DNA of 64,000 nt. It comes from Microgenomates bacterium OLB22. Lineage in GTDB: Bacteria; Patescibacteriota; Microgenomatia; UBA1406; HO2-37-13b. The stretch covers positions 5,039-69,038 of the forward strand of contig LLEV01000006.1 in NCBI GenBank assembly GCA_001567515.1, written 5' to 3'. The notes beneath the pieces were generated by a model. The model saw only the letters and a program-made list of their open reading frames with translations, ran no database searches and had not been told where the DNA came from. The translations under genes were made by a program, and so were the position numbers. Shown here piece after piece: positions 11,426 to 49,006 of this stretch; position 1 is the stretch's first letter, and each line of letters opens with the position of its first letter.

Positions 11426-12211
11426 ATGTCTGACCTCAAGCGTAAGAATGAGGAATGGAAGAAGCGATTTAAGGATGCTTTGGCGAAGTGGTGGAGAGTG
11501 AATGGCTATAAATTCGCTTCTGTCCTTCGTGATGAGTTGGGCATTGATGACAATGTATGGAGTCATATGGCCGCAGGTACAAGTATTGGTCCCACTGAAT
11601 ATTACGCCCGTATCTATGCCCGTTCAGGGACGACTCTAAAGGAGTCGGATCCAACGACCATTCCTGATCGACCCCGCGCTGGCGGGACAAGTATTCCGCT
11701 CGCATGGAGTCAAGATGAGCTTGAAGAGTATCTGGCTGGTCCAGGTAGGAAGTATCTCCCAAAGGGCAGTGCTCAGTCTGTGGCGCCGATGTCTCGATCT
11801 GAAGTTGTAGCACCCGTTGCACAGGGTACACAGACTATTGCCGCCTCAGTTTTTGGGAATATCGGTCTGGGGATGGATGCTGTCATGCAGCAAGTGATTG
11901 AGATAGCGGCAGATCGCATCGCTCAAAGACTCGCGAGTAATCCATATCAAGGTGTAGATATCTCGGCACTGGCAGCTGCTGTAGCCACTGAGGTGGGTAA
12001 GAAGCAGCAAAGAGATGCGGTAAGTATGACTATGATGCTTTCAATGCTGACAAACCTCCTTGATCTAGCTATGACAAGTAGTCCTGAGCAACGCGATGAG
12101 CTTGTCAAAGAGCACGGCCGTGCATTTGGTCGCATAATTCGGATGCTAAACACCTTGACGAAGCCGCGCGACCAGCGCGAAGCTGAACTCGATCTTCCAC
12201 AGGAGCTTTAA
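11426..12211 (+). CDS. Hypothetical protein with possible N-terminal HTH, first gene of a two-gene operon
   Basis: TATACTATG box at 11340-11348 and RBS AAAGGAG before the ATG. The N-terminus KRFKDALAKWWRVNGYKFASVLRDELGIDDNVWSHMAAG resembles an XRE-type HTH. The stop lies 1 nt before the next ATG. Confidence 0.5.
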   Translation: MSDLKRKNEEWKKRFKDALAKWWRVNGYKFASVLRDELGIDDNVWSHMAAGTSIGPTEYYARIYARSGTTLKESDPTTIPDRPRAGGTSIPLAWSQDELEEYLAGPGRKYLPKGSAQSVAPMSRSEVVAPVAQGTQTIAASVFGNIGLGMDAVMQQVIEIAADRIAQRLASNPYQGVDISALAAAVATEVGKKQQRDAVSMTMMLSMLTNLLDLAMTSSPEQRDELVKEHGRAFGRIIRMLNTLTKPRDQREAELDLPQEL

Positions 12212-12212
12212 C

Positions 12213-14231
12213 ATGGGCGTCCCAAAGGTGGTCATAACGGATCGCGTATTCGGGAATCTCACCGGGGAAGCGCGGCATCATATTGCGAATATGCTCATCC
12301 ATTTGTCTCACATGAGTGGGAGCCCTATCGAGTTTACTCGTGAGGGTGTCGAAAATGGTATTGATGCCGGTGCTCCAGATATCTCACTCGGTCTCCGAGC
12401 CGAAAGGGATGGTACCAATACACTTATCTTTGCCGATAACGGACATGGAATGGTCCCCTACATGACTGAGAAGGATATCAGCACCTTGCTTGGATATTTC
12501 ATCGATATCGAGAAGGGGACGTACGATCCCAAACTGAAGATCGTTGACTATCTTGAGCAGACGAGTAGATATTCGCTTCAGTGGATGGCTGCGCTGCCTG
12601 CTTTCTCGCAAAAGAATGCAGAGGAGGAGGAAGATCAGTTCGGAATCCGTGGAGTAGGAGTGCAGGGTTTCAGACAGTATGGCAAGCGCGGGGTGTGGCT
12701 CACAAAGCCAGATCCTGAGCTAGCTCGTGCTTATTATGGCCCCGATGATCCTCGCAGTGTACATCCGCCTACCTATCGACTTGAGCTTCCTACGATGGAA
12801 GATCTTAGGTATGGTCGTATCGAGAGCAAGATCGAGTTGTCAGATGAAGATCTGACAGATCCCACACGTCCTGGAAATCCTCCGATGGCACATGGTACTG
12901 TCGCATATATCTATGGTTTGTCAAATGAAGCTATCAATGCGCTCAGGCCTAAGCTTATTCAGCGTGACTTTGGTGATCGATATCAACATGCCATTCGAGA
13001 TGGCTTGCAGCTTCGTGTCGTTGACATGATGACAAAGAGTCGCGGGATGAAGAGTCCTAGTGGGCTCACGTTTGTGATCCAGGCCAGGGCATACAATGGA
13101 ACCAAGATCGTCGACCAGATGATACAGCTCCCTGAGCATAATACACGCTTTCATGTAGAGCTGTATTATGATCCAGTGGCAGAGGAAAGCTATCCACGCT
13201 ATCGTCGCAAGGGAAGTGGGAGACTCCCCATCACGAGCCTCGCTGCTTTTGAGAGAGCCCCTTGGGTAAGTGGGAAGCTTGATGGTCACATCGATTTTCC
13301 CGACCTTCCTGACTCTGTGGCACCTTGGGACACGCAAAAGATGATACCTATCGAAGGCCCAGTTCGTTCAGCATGGGAAAGGGCATTGAAGATTATCGAG
13401 CCCTATATCCTCAATGAGATTAAGAAGATCGACGATAAGGTCCGTAAGGACAGATCCGGTAAGGAGCTGGGCACGTTGTCAGCACACCTTCTGGCTGCCC
13501 TTGGGGATCTTGAGGGCCTTCCTGATCTACAGGGTATTGCTCCTGTCGAGGTAAAGCCAGGGGGATCTGGAATAGTTCGTGTCCGAGGTACCACACCTCA
13601 GCCACACGTTGTAGTACGTATCAAAGATCTTGATTCGGGACGTGGAGTTGAGGGGGTGAGTGTCCAGTTCTTCAAGTTCGCCGATAAGGGCAGTGTGCGT
13701 CGCAGTTATGCGAGTGCTATCAGTAGTGCCTGGACCACAGGCATCAGCGGGCAGATCACGCAGACCAACTTTTATGCTCTGCATGGCGCAGGTCGTTATC
13801 GAGTCCGGATCAGTCTCCCGCAGGGAGTACATCTGGCACAAGATGAAGCTATCGAACAGGAATTTGTGTTGCGTGCGGATAAGCCCCATCAACGAGTCGA
13901 ATTCTTAGTCCATGCGGCACTTCAGCCTCGTGAGATAAAGAAGCTTCCACACGGTTTTAGTGTGGGTTTGAATTACAATGACGCTCTACCTGAAGACGTC
14001 ATGTATGACGGAAGTCGTATCGGACGATTGAGTCTGGTTGACATCAATCCGAAGCATGCGGCCTTTATTAAACATCAGGAATTGGGGAAGCTGGTGCTCC
14101 ATGACTACATCATGATGTGTGCGGCACACGCCGTCATTGGACACACATGCAGTGCTTTTAGCCCTCGGGAACAGCTCTATTTTGCGACTGAGCTGACAGC
14201 CAGAGCCCAAGCGCGAGCACGAGGGAAGTAG
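12213..14231 (+). CDS. GHKL (MORC/HATPase_c_3-like) ATPase with C-terminal CarboxypepD_reg-like beta-sandwich
   Basis: N-box EGVENGIDAGA, G1-box IFADNGHGM and G2-like GIRGVGVQGF...GVWLTK. Later, VVVRIKDLDSGRGVEGVSVQFF...TTGISGQIT...GRYRVRISLPQG resembles a carboxypeptidase-regulatory-like fold. Confidence 0.7.
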   Translation: MGVPKVVITDRVFGNLTGEARHHIANMLIHLSHMSGSPIEFTREGVENGIDAGAPDISLGLRAERDGTNTLIFADNGHGMVPYMTEKDISTLLGYFIDIEKGTYDPKLKIVDYLEQTSRYSLQWMAALPAFSQKNAEEEEDQFGIRGVGVQGFRQYGKRGVWLTKPDPELARAYYGPDDPRSVHPPTYRLELPTMEDLRYGRIESKIELSDEDLTDPTRPGNPPMAHGTVAYIYGLSNEAINALRPKLIQRDFGDRYQHAIRDGLQLRVVDMMTKSRGMKSPSGLTFVIQARAYNGTKIVDQMIQLPEHNTRFHVELYYDPVAEESYPRYRRKGSGRLPITSLAAFERAPWVSGKLDGHIDFPDLPDSVAPWDTQKMIPIEGPVRSAWERALKIIEPYILNEIKKIDDKVRKDRSGKELGTLSAHLLAALGDLEGLPDLQGIAPVEVKPGGSGIVRVRGTTPQPHVVVRIKDLDSGRGVEGVSVQFFKFADKGSVRRSYASAISSAWTTGISGQITQTNFYALHGAGRYRVRISLPQGVHLAQDEAIEQEFVLRADKPHQRVEFLVHAALQPREIKKLPHGFSVGLNYNDALPEDVMYDGSRIGRLSLVDINPKHAAFIKHQELGKLVLHDYIMMCAAHAVIGHTCSAFSPREQLYFATELTARAQARARGK

Positions 14232-14242
14232 GTTTTTTCTCA

Positions 14243-14292
14243 CCCCTCCGTAGCCAGGTACCAGACGGTACCTGGCGAAGGGGGGGCTTTTT
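14243..14292 (+). terminator. Rho-independent terminator
   Basis: Stem ccaggtacc / ggtacctgg (14254-14275) nested in cccctcc/gggggg, followed by tttttt. Confidence 0.75.
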
Positions 14293-14350
14293 TATGCTCA
14301 CAAAGTCCTATCAACACCTGGTAGATATTGTTTTACCTCTCGCTGTGTAG

Positions 14351-14360
14351 TATACTATAG
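14351..14360 (+). promoter_or_regulatory. Putative -10 box TATACTATAG
   Basis: Lies 30 nt upstream of the ATG at 14390, with RBS AAGGAG at 14378-14383. Same motif as at 22013, 34070, 1202, 11340, 15486 and 51135(-). Confidence 0.5.
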
Positions 14361-14389
14361 GCATTGTTCTTTCACACAAGGAGTGGTAG

Positions 14390-14887
14390 ATGAGTCATGT
14401 GGCGAGCTATTATCCTATCATCGCAGCGCTTCAGGCTGCTGAGCGGATGCCAGGTATGGGTGGGGCAGGTATTACATGGACTGGGAGCAATGATGTGCAG
14501 ACACGATTTCTGACTGAAGTTGTTGGCCCTGGATACAAGCATGTAGCGGGCTTGCCAATAGAAAGTCTTGCCTCAAAGAGCGTAGATGAGATCAATGCCT
14601 TTTTGGCAGCAAGAGGATTTAGCATCACCCTCCGACCTATTGGCCCACAGGACTTTGCTGTGGCTACAATTCTTGACCTCTTGGTCGAGTGGCTAAACGA
14701 GGGGACTCGCGACATCATTCGTACCCCTCAAGGGGAATACCCGGTGGCAAAAATAAAGGGAGGTGGAGTAGAGCTCTATAAGAGCGCTAATTCCCCTCAC
14801 CCAATTGCCCGGTTGCAGACGAGGTCTGAATATAAGGTCTATATGACAATGGTGGATGAACCCCCTCCGACAGGTATTGGCTCATGA
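14390..14887 (+). CDS. Hypothetical protein, possible N-terminal half of a short serpin-like protein
   Basis: Ends ...YKVYMTMVDEPPPTGIGS, resembling the serpin 'lsm.iiLP.e..gl' segment. Overlaps the next ORF by ATGA. Confidence 0.35.
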   Translation: MSHVASYYPIIAALQAAERMPGMGGAGITWTGSNDVQTRFLTEVVGPGYKHVAGLPIESLASKSVDEINAFLAARGFSITLRPIGPQDFAVATILDLLVEWLNEGTRDIIRTPQGEYPVAKIKGGGVELYKSANSPHPIARLQTRSEYKVYMTMVDEPPPTGIGS

Positions 14888-15252
14888 GCCTTATTCGAGA
14901 TTTATCTGCAGACATGTCATCCCACTATAGAAATGAAGGGGTCATCTTCCCGATGGTGGATATGGATATCAAGGAAGACATGTCATGGATACTTGGCCTC
15001 AGTGCACAGGCTGCCGATGGTCGCCCAGCGGTCATCTCCCAAGCTGTCCGCCAGGACAAGTTGCGGATGAATCATCGGGGGGCTCGGGCACAGACGGCCG
15101 TCGCTATGGCCGTGATGCGCGGGATGTCTCCTCCGCCACTCGTGATCGATCGCCCGTTTGTTGTGTGGTTTGATCGAGCGGGACTTCCGTTTCCGATCTT
15201 CAGCGCGTATGTGACTCAGGAGCACTGGCGCGAGCCGGATACTCTTGATTGA
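14884..15252 (+). CDS. Serpin-like C-terminal half (tentative)
   Basis: Three consecutive serpin-like blocks: VIFPMVDMDIKEDMSWILGLS (cf. v.lPkf.ie..dl...L..lG), ISQAVRQDKLRMNHRGARAQTAVAM (cf. vs.vvHkA.levnEeGteAaAat) and LVIDRPFVVWF...PIFSAYV (cf. f.adrPFlf.i....ilF.Grv). Confidence 0.35.
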   Translation: MSLIRDLSADMSSHYRNEGVIFPMVDMDIKEDMSWILGLSAQAADGRPAVISQAVRQDKLRMNHRGARAQTAVAMAVMRGMSPPPLVIDRPFVVWFDRAGLPFPIFSAYVTQEHWREPDTLD

Positions 15253-15267
15253 TGTTTATTGACCTTG

Positions 15268-15297
15268 CCCAGCCCTTCGTGAAGGGCTGGGTTTTTT
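15268..15297 (+). terminator. Rho-independent terminator
   Basis: cccagccctt cgtg aagggctggg followed by tttttt. Confidence 0.8.
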
Positions 15298-15300
15298 CCG

Positions 15301-15480
15301 CCCAAGCATAAAAAATCCTAAAAACTAAACACTAAATACTAAACAAATCCAAAATACAAATCACAAATATCAAAACCTAGGCGCTGTCATCCCAAATTTG
15401 ATTTGGGACCAGTAGACAACATTCAAAAAGAAATCCTGTCCGACAGCCGGCGGATTAGAAATTAGGAATCTCAATCTATT
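15301..15480. repeat. Intergenic repeat mosaic 1
   Basis: A/C-rich low-complexity run (aaatcctaaaaactaaacactaaatactaaacaaatccaaaatacaaatcac), hairpin tgtcatcccaaatttgatttgggacc (15385-15410) and palindrome tccgacagccggcgga (15439-15454). Confidence 0.7.
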
Positions 15481-15550
15481 CATGATATACTATGAGGTGC
15501 TTCGGATATGTTCTGAGGCAGTACTTTTTAACACAAAAGGAGAAATAAGC

Positions 15551-16185
15551 ATGCTTGGAGGAATCTTTAATAAGGGAGATAGCTCTTCTAGCTCAAGTAG
15601 TGGCTCATCTGGAGGTGAGCGAAGGGTCCCTCGTCCGATTGCCCAGATTCCTGAACTCAAGATGTCGCCGGAACGACTGAGGGCATATGAGGCTGCTATT
15701 GAGGGAGTTCTGGATCGGCCCGAGCTAGAGTTACTCGTCGCCAAGATCATTGCTTATTTCGTCGAACAAAAGATCCCGCTCTTCGATTATCGAGAGACTT
15801 ATGATTATCTGACCGACCGACAAACCTTCGATGAGGGTCACAAGCGCTGGCATTGGGCACATATTAATGCTGTTGGTAAGCCCAAAGCTTGGGGATACGA
15901 CACTTATCCTAAGCAGCCAGGCTATCATGACAACACTGTCACAAGGCACTTTGAGCTTATTCCTATTCGTATTCTCAGAATTATACGGGAGCTTCAAGAG
16001 AGATTCGGGGAAAGGTTGACATTTTATGTCTCGAGGAATGGGTCCTCCCAAAGTATATTATGGCTTTGCTCGATGATTATCTGCCTGACCCCGATACCAT
16101 ATTTATCTTTGATCACTGGGATTCGGATGCACCTGATGAAGGTGATCCTCTACCGACTGAAGATAGCTCCTTGATTAGCTCCTAG
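15551..16185 (+). CDS. Hypothetical cassette protein, paralog of 22078-22737 (frame broken near 16040-16049)
   Basis: RBS AAAGGAG. Ser-rich N-terminus; shares IPLFDY / IPIFDF and L.ERFGE..FYVS / L.DRFGD..IYVS with the paralog. After FYVSRNG the paralog-like sequence (LPKYIMALLDDYLPDPDTIFIFDHWDSD) continues in another frame to the TAG at 16183-16185. Confidence 0.6.
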
Positions 16186-16237
16186 CAGATAAACCCGACT
16201 CGCTACTCGTAGAGTAGTAGGGTCGGTTTTTTTATAC

Positions 16238-16467
16238 GTATTTTTTCATCCGCCTCATTGTCATTCTGTATTTATCCGCTAGCTGGCGGATAGAATCTCG
16301 AAATATAAACTGCAAAGATCATGAATCTAGTTCAGGATGACACAAAAGGGGCCAGGATTCCAGCCAGCGCTGGAATGACAGGTTTGGAGTTAGGGCTTTG
16401 ATTTTGGAATTTGTTTGGTTCTTGTATCTTGGGATTTGTTTAGAGATTAGAAATTTGGAATTAGAAA
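16238..16467. repeat. Intergenic repeat mosaic 2
   Basis: Palindrome atccgctagctggcggat (16274-16291), hairpin ggattccagccagcgctggaatgaca (16355-16380), half-site ttcaggatgaca, and a T/G-rich run complementary to the A/C-rich run of mosaic 1. Confidence 0.7.
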
Positions 16468-24944: not shown

Positions 24945-25135
24945 CTAAGTAAGAAGGCAAAAGTCAAAAGTAAGAAAGCGTCATCCTGAACCTGCTTGCC
25001 CTTCCGTAGCTTAAGCGAAGGAGGGATTCAGGATCTAATTCAGTAAACTCAAAGATCGAAGATTAAATATCAAAACCAAATTAAAAGCTGAAAAACTAAG
25101 GGTTGTCATCCCAAACTTGATTTGGGATCCAGGCT
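24945..25135. repeat. Intergenic repeat mosaic 4
   Basis: gtcatcctgaacc...attcaggatc with a nested hairpin (24980-25035), tgtcatcccaaacttgatttgggatcc (25104-25130), and A-rich runs. Confidence 0.7.
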
Positions 25136-26289: not shown

Positions 26290-26500
26290 AAGATTCACCC
26301 GATGCATAATTCAGTTTAATATAGTCAAGTAAGAAAGTCTCAATTCTCATTTATCAAATTTCATTGAATGTTCAATTTTCAACTGACCATTGTCATCCTG
26401 AACTTGATTCAGGATCTCTTTTCGATTTTGTTTTTAGATCCCGGATCCACACGTCGCCTACGGCTTTGCGAGGCGCGGCAAGTCCGGGATGACGGGGAGG
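26290..26500. repeat. Intergenic repeat mosaic 5
   Basis: tcatttatcaaatttcattgaatgttcaatt (also found at ~55885), tgtcatcctgaacttgattcaggatc (26391-26416), and gatcccggat...gtccgggatgac (26437-26493). Confidence 0.7.
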
Positions 26501-26546: not shown

Positions 26547-27816
26547 ATGCGACGAATGGCGCTTCTACTATTAGTGAGTCTTATTAGCTCTTTTTATCCT
26601 TCCGTCTAGGACTCTGGCACTTGAAAAAAAAGTCCGTATCACTATCCCACTCAGCGATCACGTCATTGCGGAAAAAAGTGATAAAGATTTGATCATTCGT
26701 CTGACGAACCATATTGGGAGCACGGCTTTTGTACATGGCTTTATGTGGAAGCCCGAACGACTACTGCAGAGAGTCAGCTACTTGCCCTATGGTACTAGTG
26801 ATACGACAGCTCCAACAGATAGGCTATATACAAGCCAGCGCAGACTAGAGGATACAAATCTGTACCACTACAAGTCTCGTTTTTACAGTCCCGAGCTTGG
26901 TCTCTTCATCCAGCCAGATACTGTAGAGAAGAATGCAGATAGCTACGGCTACGTACATGGCAATCCAATCACCTACAACGATCCTACTGGAAACTGTGCT
27001 AGCTGTAAAAAACTCTGGAACTTTATAAGTGGGGTAGATGAGTACAAAGAAAAGGCAAAAATACCTGAAAAACCCGAGGAATATGCCCACAAAGCTGCAG
27101 GATTTGTTAACTCTTTTACCGGGATATTTGATCTGCTGGAGTTTGCTAGTATCCCGAATCCTGAGCAACTTGCTCTGGTAAAAAGGATAAACGCTGACAT
27201 CAAGCAGTACGTAGACAAGGATACTCACCAAATGCTTTTTGCCGTCGGGGCACTTATCCCGTTTGATGACGCAGGAAAGGCACAAGGCTTTTTCTCTAGA
27301 TTAATGAATTCACGCAAAGCCGGGGCCCTTCATTTTGGCGATATGGAGACTGCGCTGGAGACTATACGCGGGAACATGTCTGCCGCTTTGGGTAGGGAGA
27401 TTAGTATTCGTCCCCGTAATGCTGTTGACTATATTCTCACCGATCTTCCTGCCAGGGGAGAGATCGGGCCAGGTTATCGACACTTACAAAGTACGCTAGA
27501 AACAGTGTTCAATAGGACCGATATCCCAGAAGCAATAGCTGAAGATACTCTAAGTACCGTCGTAGCACATCAGTTTGTAGATGCCGCGGGGGTACTTCAG
27601 GGCGAGATTTATGGGTTCCACAATAGCTTTGATGAGCTGGCAGCCGGCACACAGCGGGGGACACCCTGGAACTTTAGACCCCATGGAGACTTGGCCCAAA
27701 GGTTAGGTGATCGCGTTGGTAATTCAAGTACTGATATAGCTATCGATAATTTTCAGATCCCTCGTCACATGCAGGATTTGCTACAATATGGGCAGTCTAT
27801 CCATGTAGATTTTTAA
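26547..27816 (+). CDS. Secreted RHS-core 'tip' protein B (orphan cassette; frame broken at T5 run 26591-26595) with a C-terminal toxin domain different from tip A
   Basis: MRRMALLLLVSLISSF in the frame of 26547 joins ..LPSRTLALEKKVRITIPLSD...NHIGST...YLPYG...YTSQRRLEDTNLYHYKSRFYSPELGLFIQPD...HGNPITYNDPTGN. The linker is conserved with tip A up to ..PFDD, after which the sequences are unrelated. Confidence 0.8.
26870..27270 (+). repeat. Direct repeat copy 2 (homologous to 10380-10783)
   Basis: See copy 1. Confidence 0.8.
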
Positions 27817-27817
27817 T

Positions 27818-28117
27818 ATGACTGAATCGGGAACAGAAGGGGCAATACTCATCGATATGGGTCAGGATCGTGTAGGTGTAGAAGAAGCAGTCCTAAGAGC
27901 TGTCAGAGCAATTCGTGAGCAACAGGGTGAAAGTATGGATCCTTTTCTAGAAGGGTTAGTTCGTAGTGGTATTCATGCCCAGAGGGTAGAAGATAGCACT
28001 TCTGGTGTTATGGACTCCGTTGTAGATATGATTCTGGAAGAAACTTCTCGAGATGGCAAATCTCCCGAAGAAACTGAAGCATTCCAGGCATATATAGCTA
28101 GGTGGCGAAGAGACTGA
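27818..28117 (+). CDS. Small acidic protein, putative immunity protein for tip B
   Basis: The ATG lies 1 nt after the toxin stop. 99 aa, rich in D/E. The position is typical for polymorphic-toxin immunity genes. Confidence 0.5.
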   Translation: MTESGTEGAILIDMGQDRVGVEEAVLRAVRAIREQQGESMDPFLEGLVRSGIHAQRVEDSTSGVMDSVVDMILEETSRDGKSPEETEAFQAYIARWRRD

Positions 28118-29140
28118 TCAGATTTGCCCAATATATGCAATGGGGGTATATCGCTCTACTTCTTCGATGTGGTCACCGATAAGTCTTCTGAAGTCAGTGA
28201 TGTCACGATAATGAGTAGGTCGTTCTCCTCGAATAGATGCATCAGATATTGATGTAGGTATCATCAGTCTTCTTCTGAGGGTAGCAAAATCTATGTGGGT
28301 TTCACTGGATGTAAGAGATCGAGGTACCACTCTTCCTGTACCGTGACTGATAGCATTTAGAGTAGTTGAGACTTTATCTGTAGCACGCACAAGTATCATA
28401 TCCCCATCCATGGATGAGGGAATGAGATTTAATTCTCCCGGATTTATGGGCACTGCCCCTTTGTAAACTCGAATATTCCCACCATCTGTCCGTCTATATG
28501 TATTGTGTGTTGTGTCATTGATGTGGACTAGTGGGCCATACTGTTTCTTAAGAATTTCTACGACTGCTGCTCTGTTTTCTACCGCTCCCCTTAGTAGTGC
28601 TTGATATACTCTCTCAAACTGCTCCCCATCTCTTTGGTGTGCAGCTTCTATGAGCTGGCCTCGCAAATCATCTTTCCGCGGTGTCCCCGTATGAATAACG
28701 AATCGGACCCCACCTCTTCCAGTAGGATCGATAACCGCATCAAGAAAGTGGTTTCCTGAACCAATATCTCCAGGGCCTCCATCTCGTGATCTCATCTCAT
28801 CAGCCACCGCATCCCATTTCTCTGGCTGATCCATGAATGTATCGTATGATACGTTACTCTCAACCATCTGTATTCCGCAGCCAACATCGTAAGTGAGTAA
28901 TCTCCGCCACTCTGGATTCACCCGCGGATCCAGCTCAACACAGACACCAGTTGGAATAGCATCCCGAGGTCCAGGGCTAAAGTCAGGTAGAAAAACAACC
29001 TTTATTGGTGTTAATCCATCGGGGAGCTGAGAGGGAAGGGCTTCAAGGGGCTGATCCGTCAGATTGACATATCTGACACCATCGATAACAGCCTCTTGGG
29101 CTGTGGCTAGTATTCGATCAGTCGGTTCAATATCACTCAT
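28118..29140 (-). CDS. rtcB: Short RtcB-family RNA ligase-like protein
   Basis: DVGCGI, GSGNHFLD, IHTGTPR (cf. HSGSRG) and SHGTGR (cf. HGAGR nucleophile His). I chose the start at MSDIEP (29140) because the upstream part of the track ORF overlaps a terminator hairpin (gacaccgctg...cagcggtgtc). A TATAAT box lies 6 nt upstream. Confidence 0.7.
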   Translation of the reverse strand: MSDIEPTDRILATAQEAVIDGVRYVNLTDQPLEALPSQLPDGLTPIKVVFLPDFSPGPRDAIPTGVCVELDPRVNPEWRRLLTYDVGCGIQMVESNVSYDTFMDQPEKWDAVADEMRSRDGGPGDIGSGNHFLDAVIDPTGRGGVRFVIHTGTPRKDDLRGQLIEAAHQRDGEQFERVYQALLRGAVENRAAVVEILKKQYGPLVHINDTTHNTYRRTDGGNIRVYKGAVPINPGELNLIPSSMDGDMILVRATDKVSTTLNAISHGTGRVVPRSLTSSETHIDFATLRRRLMIPTSISDASIRGERPTHYRDITDFRRLIGDHIEEVERYTPIAYIGQI

Positions 29141-29235
29141 ATGCGTATTATATAGAGTGCATTGGGGAAAAGTATAAGCAACTAGTAAACACAGACAAAA
29201 AAGACACCGCTGTTTGTGCAGCGGTGTCATCTCAC

Positions 29236-30284: not shown

Positions 30285-30639
30285 GACTGGGCCCTGACAA
30301 TCGCGGTCCTCCTTAGTTCATTAAGTTTTTCTAGTGTGTCACGTCAAACGTGGCTAACCGCGTAAGCTAGGCCCTCCTCCACTCATGTTTGACCCATGGT
30401 CTACCACGTCGAACGTGGCTGTGCGTCCACGCTTTCAAAATGCTCACTTCGGCGGGGCACAAGAACAACTAAACTCACTTCGTTTGTTAAGTTGTTCTAA
30501 TGTGCCACGTCAAACGTGGCTACTCTGAGCTTGTCGAAGAGTGCCGGGAAGAGGATCCTTCGACTCTGCTCAGGATCTATACCTATTTCGAGCTCCTTCG
30601 ACAAAATCAGGGTTCAGGTATCCTGAGCTTGTCGAAGGG
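30285..30639. repeat. Repeat-filled spacer downstream of tRNA-Leu
   Basis: Three copies of the palindrome CCACGTCRAACGTGG (30339-30356, 30404-30421, 30505-30522). Palindromic ccttcgac...gagcttgtcgaagg units. A 31-nt duplicate (30525-30555) of the tRNA-Leu 3' end plus its flank (30623-30653). Confidence 0.7.
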
Positions 30640-30720
30640 TGCCGGGAAGAGGAGTTGAACCTCCACGCCTTGCGGCACACGCTTCTGAAGCGTGCGTGTC
30701 TGCCATTTCACCATCCCGGC
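30640..30720 (-). tRNA. tRNA-Leu (anticodon CAG)
   Basis: Acceptor GCCGGGA/TCCCGGC, anticodon stem CACGC/GCGTG with loop TTCAGAA, long variable arm TGCCGCAAGGCGT, and T-loop GGTTCAACTCC. Confidence 0.85.
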
Positions 30721-43210: not shown

Positions 43211-46059
43211 TTATTGTATTCTCTCCCCTAAAAATTCCAGTACGGTAGAAATATCTCGAGAGTTGACTGTGTTATTAAAGTCAGGATCACAGGAAGTGTC
43301 TACATTTTCCCTCCTAAGTTGCTTCACACAGATCCCGTAGTCAACTGCATTGATAACTGTATCCTCATTTACATCACTTGCTACTCTGCGAATCTCTTGC
43401 TTGTACACATTCTTGAGTACTGTACAGTCTTTGGGACATGAGGTTGCTGTCTCCTGGGCTTGTGCATCACAGATGTTGTTCCCGCACATCACCACAGTAG
43501 GAAATGGAGTCGGCGAATTTTGTGGGTTAGAACTTTCCAACTGTTCAAACAAAACTTCATCATCATCGATATCTGCTATGCGCAAAAATCTCGTCTCCAG
43601 ATAGAAGGGAAGATAGAGATCTAAGGCCCTTCTGAGGATCCTTGTAGTAGAAGATCCCGTATCAAATGTGCTATCGTACTGAGGTACTTTCATACTAAAG
43701 ATTACTCCCTGATCCTCATCAAGTAGCTCCACAGTATAGTAGTCTTCTTCATAATTGGTCATATCGTAGATCGGGTATGAGCTCAGCAACTCCTTTTTAC
43801 TAAGGGCAAGTTTGTTAATACCAGTCTGATTTATGAGTACATGATGAGTCTTAAAGTACACGGGAGTAGCTTTATTACCAGTGGCAGGTGCATTTTCATC
43901 ATCCTCTCCGTCATGTAAAAATTGAAAAGAGGGCAAAGTCGCAGAAAATCGTGGGATACCTTTCTCCCATCCGTCGAGCGAAGGTCCGTTAAAATGGGAT
44001 GGCGTAAAATTCCCAAAGTTGTTCATAGCACTTTTCTCTGATGGCCTAAAGAGGTTTGGTTTTGAGCATCCAGCAAAACACGCATTGGGATATGAAGTTT
44101 TCCATAGAGAGCATTGAGAGTCGGCTGCACAGTTAGCGGCTCCCGCATTATGAAATCCTGAGTTGTATTCATCATCTAGTGGGGGACGTGGGACAGCGTG
44201 TCCCAGCTCATGACCTGTAAAGGCAAGTGTAGATGGGTCTGCTACAGCAGCAATGTCCCCGACAGCACCAGCAGATGTAGCCTTCCTTGTCACGATAAGG
44301 GCCTTGCCTCCGGCGCACTCACTCATGGCTCTACGAATAGCCTCATCATTAGTACAGGACAGAAAACGTCCCCCCAGAGCGTTTGACTTGCAAGCATAAT
44401 CCGTATCAAATTTATTGTAGGCAACAAATGCCAGTCGTGGCAGTATGCCAGGATTTGTTCGAGACTTTACATTTGAATTGAAAAATATCTCTAATCCTTT
44501 ACCGACGGCCAATTTAAATTCCTGCAGATTTGTATAGCCATCAGGGATGACAACTACTCGCAACATGTTCGGTGTCTGCACCTTGTTGTCCAGAGGAACA
44601 CATCGGTCGTTGGTGACATCTAGTATTGGCGGTAGCGACTGGGTAGTGGAGCCACCTGAGGTCTTCTTTTCTGTCGGTATGGCTGTGGGCTGCTGCACCT
44701 TGCCGGTGATAGTCTTTACATCTTCAGAAGAGCTACAATTAGTCGCCCCAGCTGCTACTGATGTCATATGGATTTCATAGCTTTCATTGGGATCAAACTT
44801 CTTCTTGTTCGCGGGTGAACACTCGGTTTTAACATCTTCACGATCGGCGGGTACTAGCCGTGAGCACAGTACTTCGGGGGAGCCTTTCTTCTTGATCTGC
44901 ATTTGAAATTGGTCAATAAACTCGCGAAGGCCCTCACATCCCTCCGGATACTCCCACTCTATTGCCATACGTGAGTCATTACTATTAGGCTTTACTCCGG
45001 CAGACTTTATCTTTGGTATACAAAGATTCTTATCCAAAAGGCACTGACTCGGATCCCTACGCTCCAAAACCCAACCGTAGTCATAGGTTTTGCCACAGGC
45101 TACAGGGAGGTCTTCGATGAGATTGCTTCCAGAAAGTGTGTCCGGCTCTGTGGCACAGAGCCCTTCAGCGTCGCACGAACGTATGACTTTATAGACGTCG
45201 GCATTATAGTGAAGCGTTACGGTGGCTTTATCTCCTGCTTGGATTTGGTACTGCTTATCCTCGGCACCACAACAGGTTTCTCCTGTCTGCACGCCATTAT
45301 TTGAGCTCCACGGGGAATACAGTCCTTTACTAAAGCGGACCCAATTAGCAGGCAGATCTCCTATAGCTGCTATAACCTTATCATTGATAGCTCCCCATTT
45401 CTCTGGACCATATAGAGTAGTCATGGGATAGTCTTTGCCTGCAAAACGCTCTCGAATAAAGGTCGTTGGTTTAAACACACATGCCTGGGCAGCAGGTTCA
45501 CCGCCACCCCCTGAGGTTTGTCTCTCAAGTACCCATCCATAAGTGATATCTACACCGCAATCGACGGTAAAATTGCGTATGGTAAAGTCAGGGTCAGTCT
45601 GTTGCTCTGCAAGATCCTTTTGCGAAGGACACCCCACAATGCTTCCTGGGTTTTGCTGACAGAAAATCTCCTTTACCCTCCACTTTTGTGTATCTACATT
45701 TATTAGGTCGATATATGCTCGATCCCCTGGATCATAGGAGGCATTATGTTTCTCCCTGCCTAAAATGAGCTCCTTAGTTTCGAAAATCATATGTGATAGG
45801 CCATCTTTATTGAGTTTAAGCTCTTCATTTTTGTCATTTACAACAGAGAAGGTGCCATCGTCTTCGTTGGAAATGAGTTTGGTGTCGTCGATTGCCCCGT
45901 CAAAAACTTTCACATGTGTTTTGTAGGCGCAGCTCGTATTTTTGAGCACGGGAGGTCGTTGTGTTGACATTTTTTGCTCAAGATCAGGCCTACGATCAAA
46001 AAAAATAGGGAAGCAATAGGAATAATAAAGGCAATACTTCCACGTGTTGGTACAGACAT
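43211..46059 (-). CDS. Cluster protein A: TM anchor + YGW domain(s) + M64-like HExxH peptidase + dockerin (frame broken at 45970-45975)
   Basis: MSVPTRGSIAFIIPIASLFFLIVGLIL (ATG at 46059) joins the track ORF at a T6 run. Contains TIRNFTVDCGVDITYGWVLE and LPVACGKTYDYGWVLE. FTGHELGHAV..PLDDEY resembles peptidase M64. C-terminal DVNEDTVINAVDY...DPDFNNTVNSRDISTVLEFLG is the dockerin. Confidence 0.7.
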
Positions 46060-46163
46060 AGTGATTAAATACTACCAATCATTCTAGAAGGAAAGCGGGA
46101 GGGAATCAATGATCAATTGGTCATATTCATTGAAGTATGAAGTTTGATGATTGGTTATAATGC

Positions 46164-46725
46164 TCAATTATCTCGTCTTCCAAGATAGGTCAAAACAAGA
46201 GATATATCAAGAGCGCTGACCTGCTTATCTTGGTCAATATCACAAGCAGCGGGACTCGGTGGATTTTCTACTTGTGTTATACAGGTGGTATAGTCGACGC
46301 TATTCACCTCCGTATCTGCATTGATGTCAGCCCTACGTTCTTGATTACAAAAGCCTGGTCGCACTGGTAAGCCCTCAGAACCTGCGACATAGACGCGTAT
46401 CGGGAGCCAGCAAGCCTCAAAAGGTGCGATCTGTAACAACTGAAGGACGCGTTGTTCTGCTTTATGAGTAACTTCTGTCGAATTTTGGTAAAGACGTATA
46501 GTAAAACTACTATCAAGTGACGTAAAAAAAGATTTTGTAGTCATCAGCGTCATCTAAGACATAACTGAGATCTCCGATCTGTGAGGATGATATGCTCGAG
46601 ATGTCCGGAAGCGTGATACCGTTGATGCGCATAGCTGCTTTGATAGGTAATGGCGCTGTCAGCATAAAACAGATTAGTAGCAGTGTTAGGATAAGGGTCT
46701 TTTTATGCATACTAGTTATCGACAT
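46164..46725 (-). CDS. Cluster protein B: small secreted dockerin protein (frame broken at A7 run 46524-46530)
   Basis: Signal peptide MHKKTLILTLLLICFMLTAPLPIKA. C-terminal ADINADTEVNSVDYTTC...CDIDQDKQVSALDISLVLTYLG. Confidence 0.6.
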
Positions 46726-48988
46726 GCGGTTGGTAATGGGTTCCAATGAGTCCAATCTGCACCATTTCGGCTCATAGATAACATTTTTTTCACATTTGTC
46801 GTTGGGTCAAAGTATTGTTGTTGACACCTCACAAAAGCCGCTTGGTCGACTACGGCACAACTACGACCTGGAGCGGTCCGTGGAGTACAGGAGCCTTGAT
46901 ATGAAGATGTATCACTAAAGCCACTTCCTGTCATCACGTATTTACATGATACAGGATCACGTCTTACTGATCCTCCTGTGCATCGATCTGCCCAGGGAAA
47001 GACGCTTATCTGAAATAGGCCAATGGCATAGGCAGGTGCATTATTTTTTAGACAACTGAGCTTGGATACTTTGTCTGCGAGGGCCGATGGGTCGCCTCCT
47101 GATTCCCGCCGACAGAGTGCCATTGCACAGGGTAAACGCTTATCGGCTTCGGCCGAGGAGACCCCTGCTTCTAGGAAGAATGGCTTGAGAAACTCTCTGG
47201 AACAATAGCCCTCGGATGTCTTCGGGGGCTCAGGAGGCTCTCACTCGGCTTATCGCTCTTGATATAGAGCTCGAGTGAGGCCAATGCTCCAGCTACTGTG
47301 GTAAAGGAACACTCTTCATTTTCAGTGCCAGCCTGCAAGACACTTCCGTTTAGGCAGCGTAACACCTTAATAGGTGTTTGAGGTGAGGTTTTTACTTTGA
47401 GAGTATGGGTCATAGCTGAGACTAAATCTTCAAAAGTAGCGGACACCTTTCCTTGAGAGGGAAGTTCGAGTTTTTTGACGCACTCTCTTGGAGTCTCGGA
47501 GCTATCTTGTTTGCAGCCTTCTATCGTGGCTTCGATAGTGATTGTTCTGTCAGTGGCATTTTTAAGCTCTAGATGGAGCTTTCCTGTTGCCAGAGGCTCG
47601 CTTCGAGATGCATCTGATGGGCAAGGGGTACATATCGACCGTCGGCCATCTTCACGTGGATTTTCCCAACTACATTTGGATCCATCACCAATGCCATCGC
47701 CTATGATGCATCTTCCATACTTAGTACACGTTCGTAGCGATCCATCTGAACAAAGCTCAGTGTATGAGTCAGTACAGTAGCTTCCTTTAGTCTCACAGAT
47801 AGCAGTTTTCTGAGGCGGGGTCGATGTTGGGCGTGCCTTGTCCTGGGATTGATTCTGACCGCAGCATAGATATACAGAGCTTCCTCCTCGTGCACTGATT
47901 TTGTTTACGCATTTTCCTCCACCTTGTCTACAATTAGCACAGGTTGTGACAGTTTCACACTGCCTTTCTGGTGGTGCCCATAAGACTATGGGGACAGTCT
48001 TTTTCTCCCTATTGATTGAGATTTCTCTTCGGGCATCTGCACAGACTTTGAGTAGTTCTGTGGGTCTACCCTTATTTAGATTTACCTCATAAGTCCCAGC
48101 AGGCAGGGAAGTAAATGTGACAGAGTCGCAAGCGCTTTCTTTTTTCTGATCAGAGACTTTTGCCCCATCCTTTGTGAGATCTATTCGACACTCTCCAAGA
48201 TAGTATTCAATTCCTGCACCATCTAGATCGTTATTTACAGCTCGTTCCAGCTTCGTGATATCACAAAGATCTCCTGATGGGCGGTCCTGACTGCGGACCA
48301 CAAATACTTTTGACTCAATAGCCCCTGTGCTATCAGTATCTGTAGCCAAAGTGGGGGCAGGGATAGTCGTTGGCTCAGTTGATGGTGATGGTGAGGGACG
48401 CGAAAGATCCTCTACTATCCAGCCATACGTAATATCCACGTCACATGCCACGTTAAAATCACGGATGGTGTTTGTGGGGACTTCTCGTTGATTGGCAAGC
48501 TGATCATCTTCGGGGCAGCCCCTGATTCCTGAGTGTTGTTCGCAAAAAATATCAGTTATCTTGTAGCGTGACCCTAATGAATCGCTAATCAAGGTGACGG
48601 CAGCTTTCTCTTGTGCCCTGTACTTCTTATCATCGGAGGAGTCTGTGGTTGTGAGGCGAATAAAGTTATTGAATACATCGTAGCTTTTCCCACCCCGCTT
48701 TAGTTCTATGGATTGACCCTTATTATTTTCGACAACAAATCGTTCTTGGTCATTTACGGCGATCAATTGGCCTTGGCGATTCTTTTTGAGCACCAGTATC
48801 TCTGTGCGATATGCACAAGATTGAGCTTGTGTAAAAAATCCTCTAGGAGAGCCATTCGATAGTATCCCACTAGTGCCGACAACAAGCCCCAAGAGCAGAC
48901 TTGCAAGGGAAGTCAGTCCAATGGCTACATGTAATTCACCATGCTGGTAGGATTTCTGAGTCATAGCGTATAACACATTGTACAGCAA
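46716..48988 (-). CDS. Cluster protein C: TM anchor + YGW domain + Cys-rich region + SLT lytic-transglycosylase domain (frame broken at G5 run 47224-47228)
   Basis: TM helix VAIGLTSLASLLLGLVVGT and TIRDFNVACDVDITYGWIVE. The downstream frame reads ...GYCSREFLKPFFLEAGVSSAEADKRLPCAMALCRRESGGDPSA...AYAIGLFQI (E-S...GLxQ SLT signature). Confidence 0.65.
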
Positions 48989-49006
48989 CCTCGATGACTG
49001 CGTCAG

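Follow-up and report, generated by a model that had tools for sequence, protein, structure and literature searches.

The 64,000-nucleotide (nt) stretch of DNA analyzed here (the window) is positions 5,039 to 69,038 of contig LLEV01000006.1 from Microgenomates bacterium OLB22, a Candidate Phyla Radiation (CPR) member. It contains two stand-alone genes, here called tip A and tip B, each encoding an Rhs core, a linker and a variable C-terminal domain (CT-A and CT-B, respectively). Tip A directly follows a long Rhs/YD-repeat gene, the shell gene, and tip B is followed by an acidic open reading frame (ORF) of 99 amino acids (aa). The parts of tip B, its neighbors and the related genes of the window are listed in Table 1.

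Table 1. Coordinates, in the window, of the tip B gene, the adjoining genes and the related Rhs genes.
Feature	Position	Strand	Basis or remark
Tip B start codon and Sec-type signal peptide	26547..26619	+	MRRMALLLLVSLISSFILPSRTLA then LEKK after repair; frameshift inside
T5 homopolymer, probable sequencing indel	26591..26595	+	One T fewer joins the ATG frame to the body frame
Pre-core segment, ~53 aa, with NHIGS (DHLGS-like) motif	26620..26778	+	~30-35% identity to tip A (alignment)
Rhs repeat-associated core (C-terminal plug/aspartyl-protease module)	26779..26994	+	TIGR03696 match; ends QPDTVEK...16 aa...NDPTGN
Predicted post-cleavage linker, 92 aa, CASCKK...PFDD, common to tip A	26995..27270	+	Alignment with tip A
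Variable C-terminal domain CT-B (presumed toxin), including stop codon	27271..27816	+	Unrelated to CT-A
Acidic ORF of 99 aa without signal peptide, immunity candidate	27818..28117	+	1-nt gap to tip B
Convergent RtcB-family gene abutting the 99-aa ORF	28118..29230	-	Pfam RtcB, 44 bits (cut-off 27)
Tip A, the paralogue that follows the shell gene directly and ends in another C-terminal domain	10015..11334	+	Alignment, TIGR03696
Rhs/YD-repeat shell gene(s) without core or plug	4409..10018	+	Three listed ORFs in three frames; apparent frameshifts

Including its stop codon, tip B spans 26547-27816 of the window, and a three-frame translation places its ATG and its body in different reading frames. 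Frame 0 from the ATG at 26547 reads MRRMALLLLVSLISSFYPSV and then meets a stop at 26607; the body lies in a frame shifted by +1, which has no stop from 26578 until the TAA at 27814-16 (413 codons) and whose first standard start codon is a TTG at 26689. Deleting one T of the T5 run fuses the two into a protein of 422 aa, whose N-terminus, MRRMALLLLVSLISSFILPSRTLA, combines a basic n-region with a hydrophobic core (hydropathy over 19 aa peaks at 1.81) and an AXA-like site before LEKK, and aligns with the N-terminus of tip A. A preliminary description of the locus, made from the sequence alone, began the gene at 26547 and passed over the frameshift; that start is correct only if the frameshift is bridged. 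The GenBank annotation of tip B consists only of a 357-aa product, KXK08779.1, starting MWKPE.

In Microgenomates bacterium OLB22, UZ21_OP11001000333 has the same sequence as the 99-aa ORF; going by its strain names, we take this genome to belong to the Olburgen anammox reactor study. Its locus tag, OP11001, is consistent with bin OP11-1 in the table of PMC4821891. That metagenome was sequenced by IonTorrent PGM only, and "persistent frameshifts, common in IonTorrent data" were fixed by script and manual curation (PMC4821891). Elsewhere in the window, lineage-specific genes are likewise interrupted at homopolymers (A7, A8, T7 and C5 runs). Apart from its single lesion, the body of tip B has an intact frame and gene-like codon usage, scoring +0.19 to +0.21 per codon against 0.17 ± 0.05 in 22 reference genes, with its other frames near zero or below. 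Because the bin is IonTorrent-only and further homopolymer breaks occur within the window, the frameshift in the signal-peptide region is quite probably a homopolymer sequencing error.

From the signal peptides through the motif PFDD, tips A and B are 54% identical over ~250 aa (BLASTP, E 5e-82); beyond PFDD, BLASTP found no significant high-scoring segment pair between them. The motifs NSFTGIFDLLEFASIPNP, INADIKQYVDKD, DPTGN and PFDD are confined to ~10.5-10.8 kb and 27.0-27.3 kb of the window. Both tips match the Rhs_assc_core model TIGR03696 (E 7e-16 and 3e-16; cut-off 32.5 bits), repaired tip B with E 6.6e-16 and 58.6 bits over residues 78-148. The preliminary description had given the two tips a common signal peptide layout, core and linker: the core and linker are indeed shared, and the signal peptide layout is shared only once one T is removed. 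The ~100-aa linker and unrelated ~150-aa C-terminus it described for tip B are also both present, measuring 92 and 181 aa, and its expectation that the variable regions would not align was borne out by BLASTP and by the profile comparison given below.

Each core ends with QPDTVEK, 16 aa, NDPTGN, that is, with two Asp motifs 16-17 aa apart. In Rhs proteins, the C-terminal cleavage site comes after two aspartyl-protease motifs (a DPLGL pair) ~17 residues apart, of which the second supplies the catalytic Asp in Rhs1, and in solved structures the aspartyl-protease domain is a plug embedded in the barrel (PMC8636562). The first Asp motif of the tips is degenerate (DTVEK versus DPLGL), and we infer from motif likeness that tip B may cleave itself after DPTGN. 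The residue following this motif is the Cys of a CxxC in tip B (DPTGN/CASC, 26992-27006), in tip A (DPTGN/CALC, 10504-10518) and in P0004, a homologue described below (DPTGN/CATC). This Asn-Cys junction is reminiscent of the C-terminal splice junction of inteins, and Asp protease activity, Asn cyclisation or both are candidate routes of cleavage.

Between the end of the core and PFDD (134 codons), the tips share 77% identity in protein and 75% in DNA, with a proportion of synonymous differences (pS) of 0.74, indicating saturated synonymous sites, and a ratio of nonsynonymous to synonymous divergence (dN/dS) of 0.046. The shared block is 407 nt long at 75% identity, and its longest identical runs are 32 and 22 nt. 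Because pS is saturated, dN/dS is low and identical runs are short, the sequences mark tips A and B as old paralogues under strong purifying selection; tip B appears to be neither a recent duplicate of tip A nor a recombination-ready cassette. The 92-aa linker is not hydrophobic, is constrained as strongly as the catalytic core, and has no relative among the 84 loci fetched for comparison.

The shell gene matches Pfam RHS_repeat (E 6e-19), and its N-terminus has a sub-threshold match to SpvB (E 0.005, 16.6 bits, cut-off 22). TIGR03696 was not found in the shell ORFs, and DPxG and DHLGS motifs are absent from all forward frames of the shell. Its breaks fall at an A7 run at 6908 and an A8 run near 9683: at ~6908 the protein sequence resumes in the next frame (…KTPALKK / ESRTAVEVVGIDVYGNTTKSVTY), and 9572-9690 continues in another frame (…GDFTIQCNINVNYGWYLRKK) up to the A8 run. 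The shell is probably one gene of ~1870 aa split by IonTorrent indels. As far as domain content indicates, the plug and presumed toxin are encoded apart from the shell, by tip A directly downstream and by tip B 15 kb off.

CT-B comprises residues 242-422 of repaired tip B (181 aa) and has no match in Pfam, NCBIfam, PADLOC or PDB sequences; CT-A has no match in Pfam or PDB. An exhaustive HMMER scan with CT-B over 1.84 billion representative proteins returned the protein itself, two true relatives and one spurious match. The relatives, P0003 (465 aa; E 9e-19, 37% identity to CT-B) and P0004 (497 aa; E 2e-10), are themselves stand-alone tips in which a signal peptide (its end AQA or VSA) leads into a short pre-core and an Rhs core, and their linkers are glycine-rich and hydrophobic, unlike that of tips A and B. 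Thus one linker precedes two unrelated domains in tips A and B, and CT-B follows at least two linker types. Because a shared linker leads into differing domains and a shared CT-B follows differing linkers, the comparison points to domain shuffling at two independent junctions, a hallmark of polymorphic toxins. The motifs DYIL, GY[KR], GE[IL]YGFHN and G[ST]PWNF are invariant in the CT-B family. The spurious match, a 4473-aa repetitive adhesin (P0005), was rejected as a relative, as only its "NWNF"-type repeats matched.

Other searches with CT-B gave little. Word-indexed searches with CT-B alone or with the three-sequence alignment were empty and also missed the protein itself, so that they are uninformative; a scan of viral contigs found no CT-B. 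Compared by hhalign, the CT-B family and CT-A gave a probability of 0.05%, and a likeness between them noted by eye (LHF/MHF, W-x-[FL]-[RK]-P-x-G) was rejected on this result. An AlphaFold2 (AF2) model of CT-B built from the three-sequence alignment is moderately confident and has an alpha/beta fold, with a predicted local distance difference test score (pLDDT) of 70.8 and a predicted template modeling score (pTM) of 0.70. A fold search of the variable domains had been suggested in the preliminary description; Foldseek, run with the CT-B model, returned nothing significant (best E 0.11 in PDB and 0.046 in BFVD), and the GNAT acetyltransferases that were its top matches were dismissed (TM ~0.2, probability <= 0.23). 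CT-B thus seems to represent a very small, rare and previously undescribed domain family, presumably of toxins.

A metagenome scan yielded 80 Rhs-core loci, and 84 loci were fetched in all; the signal-peptide stand-alone format passed our screen at four places among them, L082 and L083 (the same gene), L084 and L003. The n-region, hydrophobic core and AXA layout of the tip B signal peptide recurs in P0003, in P0004, in a second tip of L084 and in L003. The tip A/B linker, CT-A, the tip N-termini and the 99-aa ORF were found in none of the 80 metagenome loci, and a scan of genome contigs with the tip alignment returned a single distant archaeal Rhs core only. L084 (1386-4184) holds two signal-peptide tips in tandem on one short contig, in the order P0004, a 128-aa acidic ORF, a 112-aa basic ORF and the start of the second tip (3846). 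No Rhs shell gene lies upstream there; the upstream gene encodes a membrane protein with a Gly-rich tail. L003 (152-2295) carries a tip of 503 aa, with a glycine-rich hydrophobic linker, that ends in LAS-type metallopeptidase motifs (HAGHRGGLDVD … HNNHLH), as read from the sequence; a 211-aa ORF with a signal peptide comes next and overlaps the tip gene by 4 nt. L003 looks like a cell-wall-targeting variant of the tip format. In the open-access literature searched, neither stand-alone Rhs tips with a signal peptide nor Patescibacteria with Rhs systems are described, which is weak evidence that the format is novel.

The preliminary description had also noted a D/E-rich ORF of 99 aa starting 1 nt after the stop of tip B, and the sequence agrees: the TAA at 27814-16 is followed by an ATG at 27818, and the product has 21 D+E versus 11 K+R (isoelectric point (pI) 4.5). 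Its codon usage is gene-like solely in its own frame. An exact look-up of the ORF sequence returned no recorded contig. Beyond its own GenBank entry the ORF has no homologue, which speaks against a conserved housekeeping role elsewhere, and it has no match in Pfam, NCBIfam, PDB or PADLOC, with Ntox34 (E 0.036) and FTR_C (E 0.045) as sub-threshold Pfam matches. Positional counterparts follow the CT-B relatives of L082 (132 aa, pI 4.3, 23-nt gap) and L084 (128 aa, pI 4.8, 11-nt overlap), neither with a signal-peptide-like N-terminus when read by eye. Thus, an acidic ORF of 99-132 aa without a signal peptide comes after each of the three CT-B homologues, at -11 to +23 nt.

Rapid divergence is typical of immunity proteins, and the non-alignable ORFs are compatible with fast-evolving immunity proteins of unproven homology. 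The ORF behind the L003 tip, with its signal peptide, is unlike those that follow the CT-B homologues. The location of the putative antidote would therefore track the presumed compartment of the toxin, which supports an immunity function and a cytoplasmic target for CT-B. The latter is suggested because the 99-aa protein has no signal peptide and is presumed to be cytoplasmic.

We consider it reasonably likely that this Microgenomates (CPR) bacterium has a split Rhs system of which tip B and the 99-aa ORF are a complete, independently encoded toxin/immunity pair. The polymorphic toxin/immunity interpretation finds good support in comparative evidence, namely the paralogy with tip A, the recurrence of CT-B and the coupled acidic ORFs. 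The layout proposed in the preliminary description, a constant delivery part with a variable toxin and a coupled acidic ORF, is supported, and its modularity is stronger than that description knew, since CT-B stands behind different linkers in two other metagenomic tips. In such a system, tip B and the 99-aa ORF would be co-transcribed and translationally coupled, and the cytoplasmic 99-aa protein would neutralize CT-B in the producer, implying a cytoplasmic target. The tip would be exported by Sec and would supply the plug that is missing from the shell protein; a single shell would therefore take tip A or tip B as its alternative warheads. Cleavage by the core after DPTGN would then free linker plus toxin, and the conserved linker may carry out a step common to both tips, either docking within the shell or passage into the target cell.

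Several observations weigh against this interpretation. No family, PDB or fold match assigns a toxic or enzymatic activity to CT-B, the three putative immunity ORFs have no detectable mutual similarity, and the AF2 model of the 99-aa protein (four predicted helices) is unreliable, with a pLDDT of 52. Tip A has no comparably tight coupled small ORF, and there is little conservation between the two tips in the pre-core segment, where contact with the shell is expected. As sequenced, tip B is frameshifted, and its database product has no signal peptide. Finally, the contigs of L082 (14 kb) and L084 (4 kb) carry tips without a shell gene.

If the frameshift is real, tip B may be recently inactivated or export-defective, and the locus may be kept mainly for its immunity gene, as protection from neighbors still producing this toxin. 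The frameshift is present in a deposited, author-curated assembly, the GenBank product is shortened, and orphan immunity genes are common in polymorphic toxin systems. We nevertheless regard this as unlikely: the lesion is single and lies in a homopolymer of an IonTorrent-only assembly, frameshift correction in that metagenome was presumably homology-based and could not have reached lineage-specific genes, further genes of the window are interrupted in the same way, and the remaining frame and codon usage are normal. A related possibility, that tip B is a silent orphan rhs-CT/rhsI module, an unexpressed reservoir that recombines with tip A via their common core/linker block, exchanging the toxin, while its immunity gene is still expressed, draws on the block shared with tip A, on the frameshift that parts start from body, and on the prevalence of orphan arrays at other Rhs loci, of which L080 is a classical example (PMC4436062). 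It seems very improbable for a gene that has an ATG and a signal peptide of its own (orphan modules by definition have neither) and lies 15 kb away with unrelated genes between. With synonymous sites saturated and identical runs so short, tip B would furthermore be a poor recombination substrate, and the same block of tip, small ORF and RtcB-family gene stands alone in a distant genome. The same considerations (own ATG and signal peptide, distance, ancient paralogy and a conserved block) tell against the label "orphan" given to the cassette in the preliminary description, although the separation of ~15 kb stated there is accurate, as tip B starts 15.2 kb after the end of tip A (16.5 kb from the shell).

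The roles of the 99-aa ORF and of the shell can be questioned independently. The 99-aa ORF might encode an adaptor, a chaperone or an unrelated small protein, or be spurious, as could be argued from its isolation in database searches, its low-confidence model and the failure of its positional equivalents to align. This is distinctly unlikely given the 1-nt coupling, codon usage that is gene-like in one frame only, the persistence of position, size and acidity behind all three CT-B homologues, and the speed at which immunity proteins typically diverge. Alternatively, the tips could act without a shell, as soluble toxins secreted through Sec whose core is no more than a pro-domain that cleaves itself; the shell of the window would then be unrelated to tip B. 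The shell-less tips of L082 and L084 (two in tandem in the latter), the distance of tip B from the shell and the poorly conserved pre-core strands would all fit, and yet the comparison contigs are short, the shell of the window has no plug, and tip A comes directly after it; we consider shell-independent action rather unlikely. Returning to the split Rhs system, its elements can be joined in a scheme that we put forward only tentatively: a trans-assembled Rhs in which a plug-less shell and interchangeable Sec-exported tips meet outside the cell, the tips competing for the shell or loading it sequentially, so that toxin choice is made at the protein level and not by DNA recombination. The 92-aa linker would then be a shared docking or entry module, and CT-B could be RNA-damaging, with the RtcB-family neighbor as back-up repair.

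The tips resemble the Rhs/rhsI systems of P. laumondii (Rhs1) and E. coli/Salmonella (PMC8636562, PMC4436062) in their TIGR03696 core with two Asp motifs ending DPxGx, in the variable C-terminal domain right after the core, in the immunity-type ORF that comes next and in the shuffling of toxin domains between delivery parts. They differ in that one gene encodes the YD-repeat shell and another the plug-plus-toxin, both with an N-terminal signal or anchor of their own, in that delivery presumably involves Sec in a CPR bacterium and not a type VI secretion system, and in the motif itself (DPTGN/C here, DPLGL there). Tip B has no RHS_repeat Pfam match and only ~50 aa between signal peptide and core. 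The Rhs toxin/rhsI logic is known; new are the split Rhs with putatively Sec-exported tips in a CPR bacterium and the rare presumed toxin domain family.

Orphan rhs-CT/rhsI modules have no N-terminal trafficking module, lie downstream of the full-length gene and are recombination substrates (PMC4436062; Koskiniemi et al. 2014 cited there). Like them, tip B is a second toxin/immunity pair in the genome with a core-proximal block in common with the primary copy. Unlike them, it has its own start codon and signal peptide, which a single, probably artefactual homopolymer indel parts from the body, it is not sited downstream of the main gene, its divergence is ancient and under purifying selection, and its locus is kept in another, distant genome. 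For RecA-type recombination, the homology that tip B shares with tip A would be marginal, and no recent exchange was seen; L080 provides a contrast as a classical orphan array.

The closest functional analogy is the split cocoon of TcB-TcC in Tc toxins (PMC6868009), with the split placed here just before the plug. In both, two polypeptides would make up the cocoon, the toxin is on the piece with the aspartyl-protease plug, and alternative subunits (TcC in Tc toxins) bring alternative toxins to one partner; the weak SpvB-like match of the shell N-terminus, below threshold, is a further likeness. TcC, however, gives about half of the cocoon (~700 aa of repeats), and the tips contribute only the plug and ~50 aa. 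Among the ORFs of the window, none was noted as TcA-like. WapA, from Bacillus and Streptococcus, is a Sec-exported YD/Rhs toxin of monoderm bacteria with a cytoplasmic cognate immunity protein. It parallels the tips in that a Sec signal peptide exports an Rhs-family toxin, Sec-type N-termini being present on both parts here, and differs as a single long polypeptide that includes the repeats. CdiA-CT is bipartite, consisting of an entry domain plus a toxin; the conserved 92-aa linker, placed after a demarcation motif and before two unrelated toxin domains, is analogous to this arrangement and has no sequence relationship to it.

If this interpretation is correct, ultra-small CPR/Patescibacteria, which are thought to live attached to other cells, carry split-format Rhs antagonism systems in which one shell gene serves several separately exported plug-toxin genes scattered in the genome. 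This would be a route of toxin diversification unlike the recombination-based orphan cassettes of proteobacteria. CT-B would also represent a new and very rare toxin domain, defined by GE[IL]YGFHN and G[ST]PWNF. More generally, IonTorrent homopolymer errors can mask signal peptides and break up lineage-specific genes in this set of metagenome-assembled genomes, which is widely used.

The convergent RtcB-family gene beside the 99-aa ORF has a counterpart in L082 (4898-5929, minus strand), which is 41% identical, overlaps the tail of the 132-aa ORF and occupies the same tail-to-tail position. None of the other L082 genes tested, on both flanks of the block, matched the window. The two RtcB-family genes are compact (343-370 aa) and highly divergent, and lie in otherwise non-syntenic contigs. 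Motifs picked out by eye (DVGCG, GSGNHF, HTG, HN and SHGTGR) are ones that we take to correspond to the RtcB metal and His-GMP sites. The RtcB-like protein of the window has no PDB sequence match, being too divergent. The combination of an antidote without a signal peptide and an adjacent RtcB-family ligase in two genomes could be a lead to an intracellular, possibly RNA, target; any functional link between RtcB and the toxin pair is speculative, two loci being too few to claim one.

Between tip A and tip B lie ~15 unrelated genes and a tRNA. The G+C content of tip B, the 99-aa ORF and the RtcB-family gene is 0.44-0.48, compared with 0.455 for the window, and gives no sign of recent acquisition of the tip B block. 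Behind tip A, the next forward ORF (11426-12211, 261 aa) begins 92 nt downstream. The gene after it encodes 672 aa, with an N-terminus that weakly matches GHKL/MutL-type ATPases (HATPase_c_3, E 9e-4), and lies in a stretch of raised G+C content (0.49-0.51 versus 0.455). The region 11335-16200 has no PADLOC matches; it is possibly an inserted island or a large immunity/defence module.

Promoter and terminator scans gave results at chance level. An intergenic hairpin, TCATCC[CT][AG]AA-YTTG-ATT[TC][GA]GGA, occurs in four copies (15387-15408, 16319-16340 on the minus strand, 25106-25127 and 26393-26414), with none expected by chance, and its stems carry compensatory changes (CCCAAA/TTTGGG versus CCTGAA/TTCAGG). 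Three copies are in terminator positions, and one, which has a T-rich tract after it, is located in a divergent intergenic region, 133 nt upstream of the tip B ATG. The repeated hairpin could be either a terminator family or a small mobile element.

Elsewhere in the window, 46164-49006 (minus strand) holds a chain of ORF fragments of surface proteins, broken at runs of C5 (47228), A7 (46790) and T7 (46530). One piece resembles a lytic transglycosylase (ESGGDP…GLFQI), and a protein of the chain has a signal peptide and a dockerin-like end. A "C-x-[VI]-[DN]-[IV]-x-YGW" domain is common to this chain and to the ORF at 43211-46078, and also occurs as an insert in the Rhs shell (~9640-9680). Short direct repeats at 30312-30653 (one pair of 45 nt, 87% identical and 166 nt apart, and one of 31 nt, 97% identical and 98 nt apart) adjoin a tRNA gene (30640-30720, minus strand) and may be the remnant of an attachment-site duplication or a repeat array.

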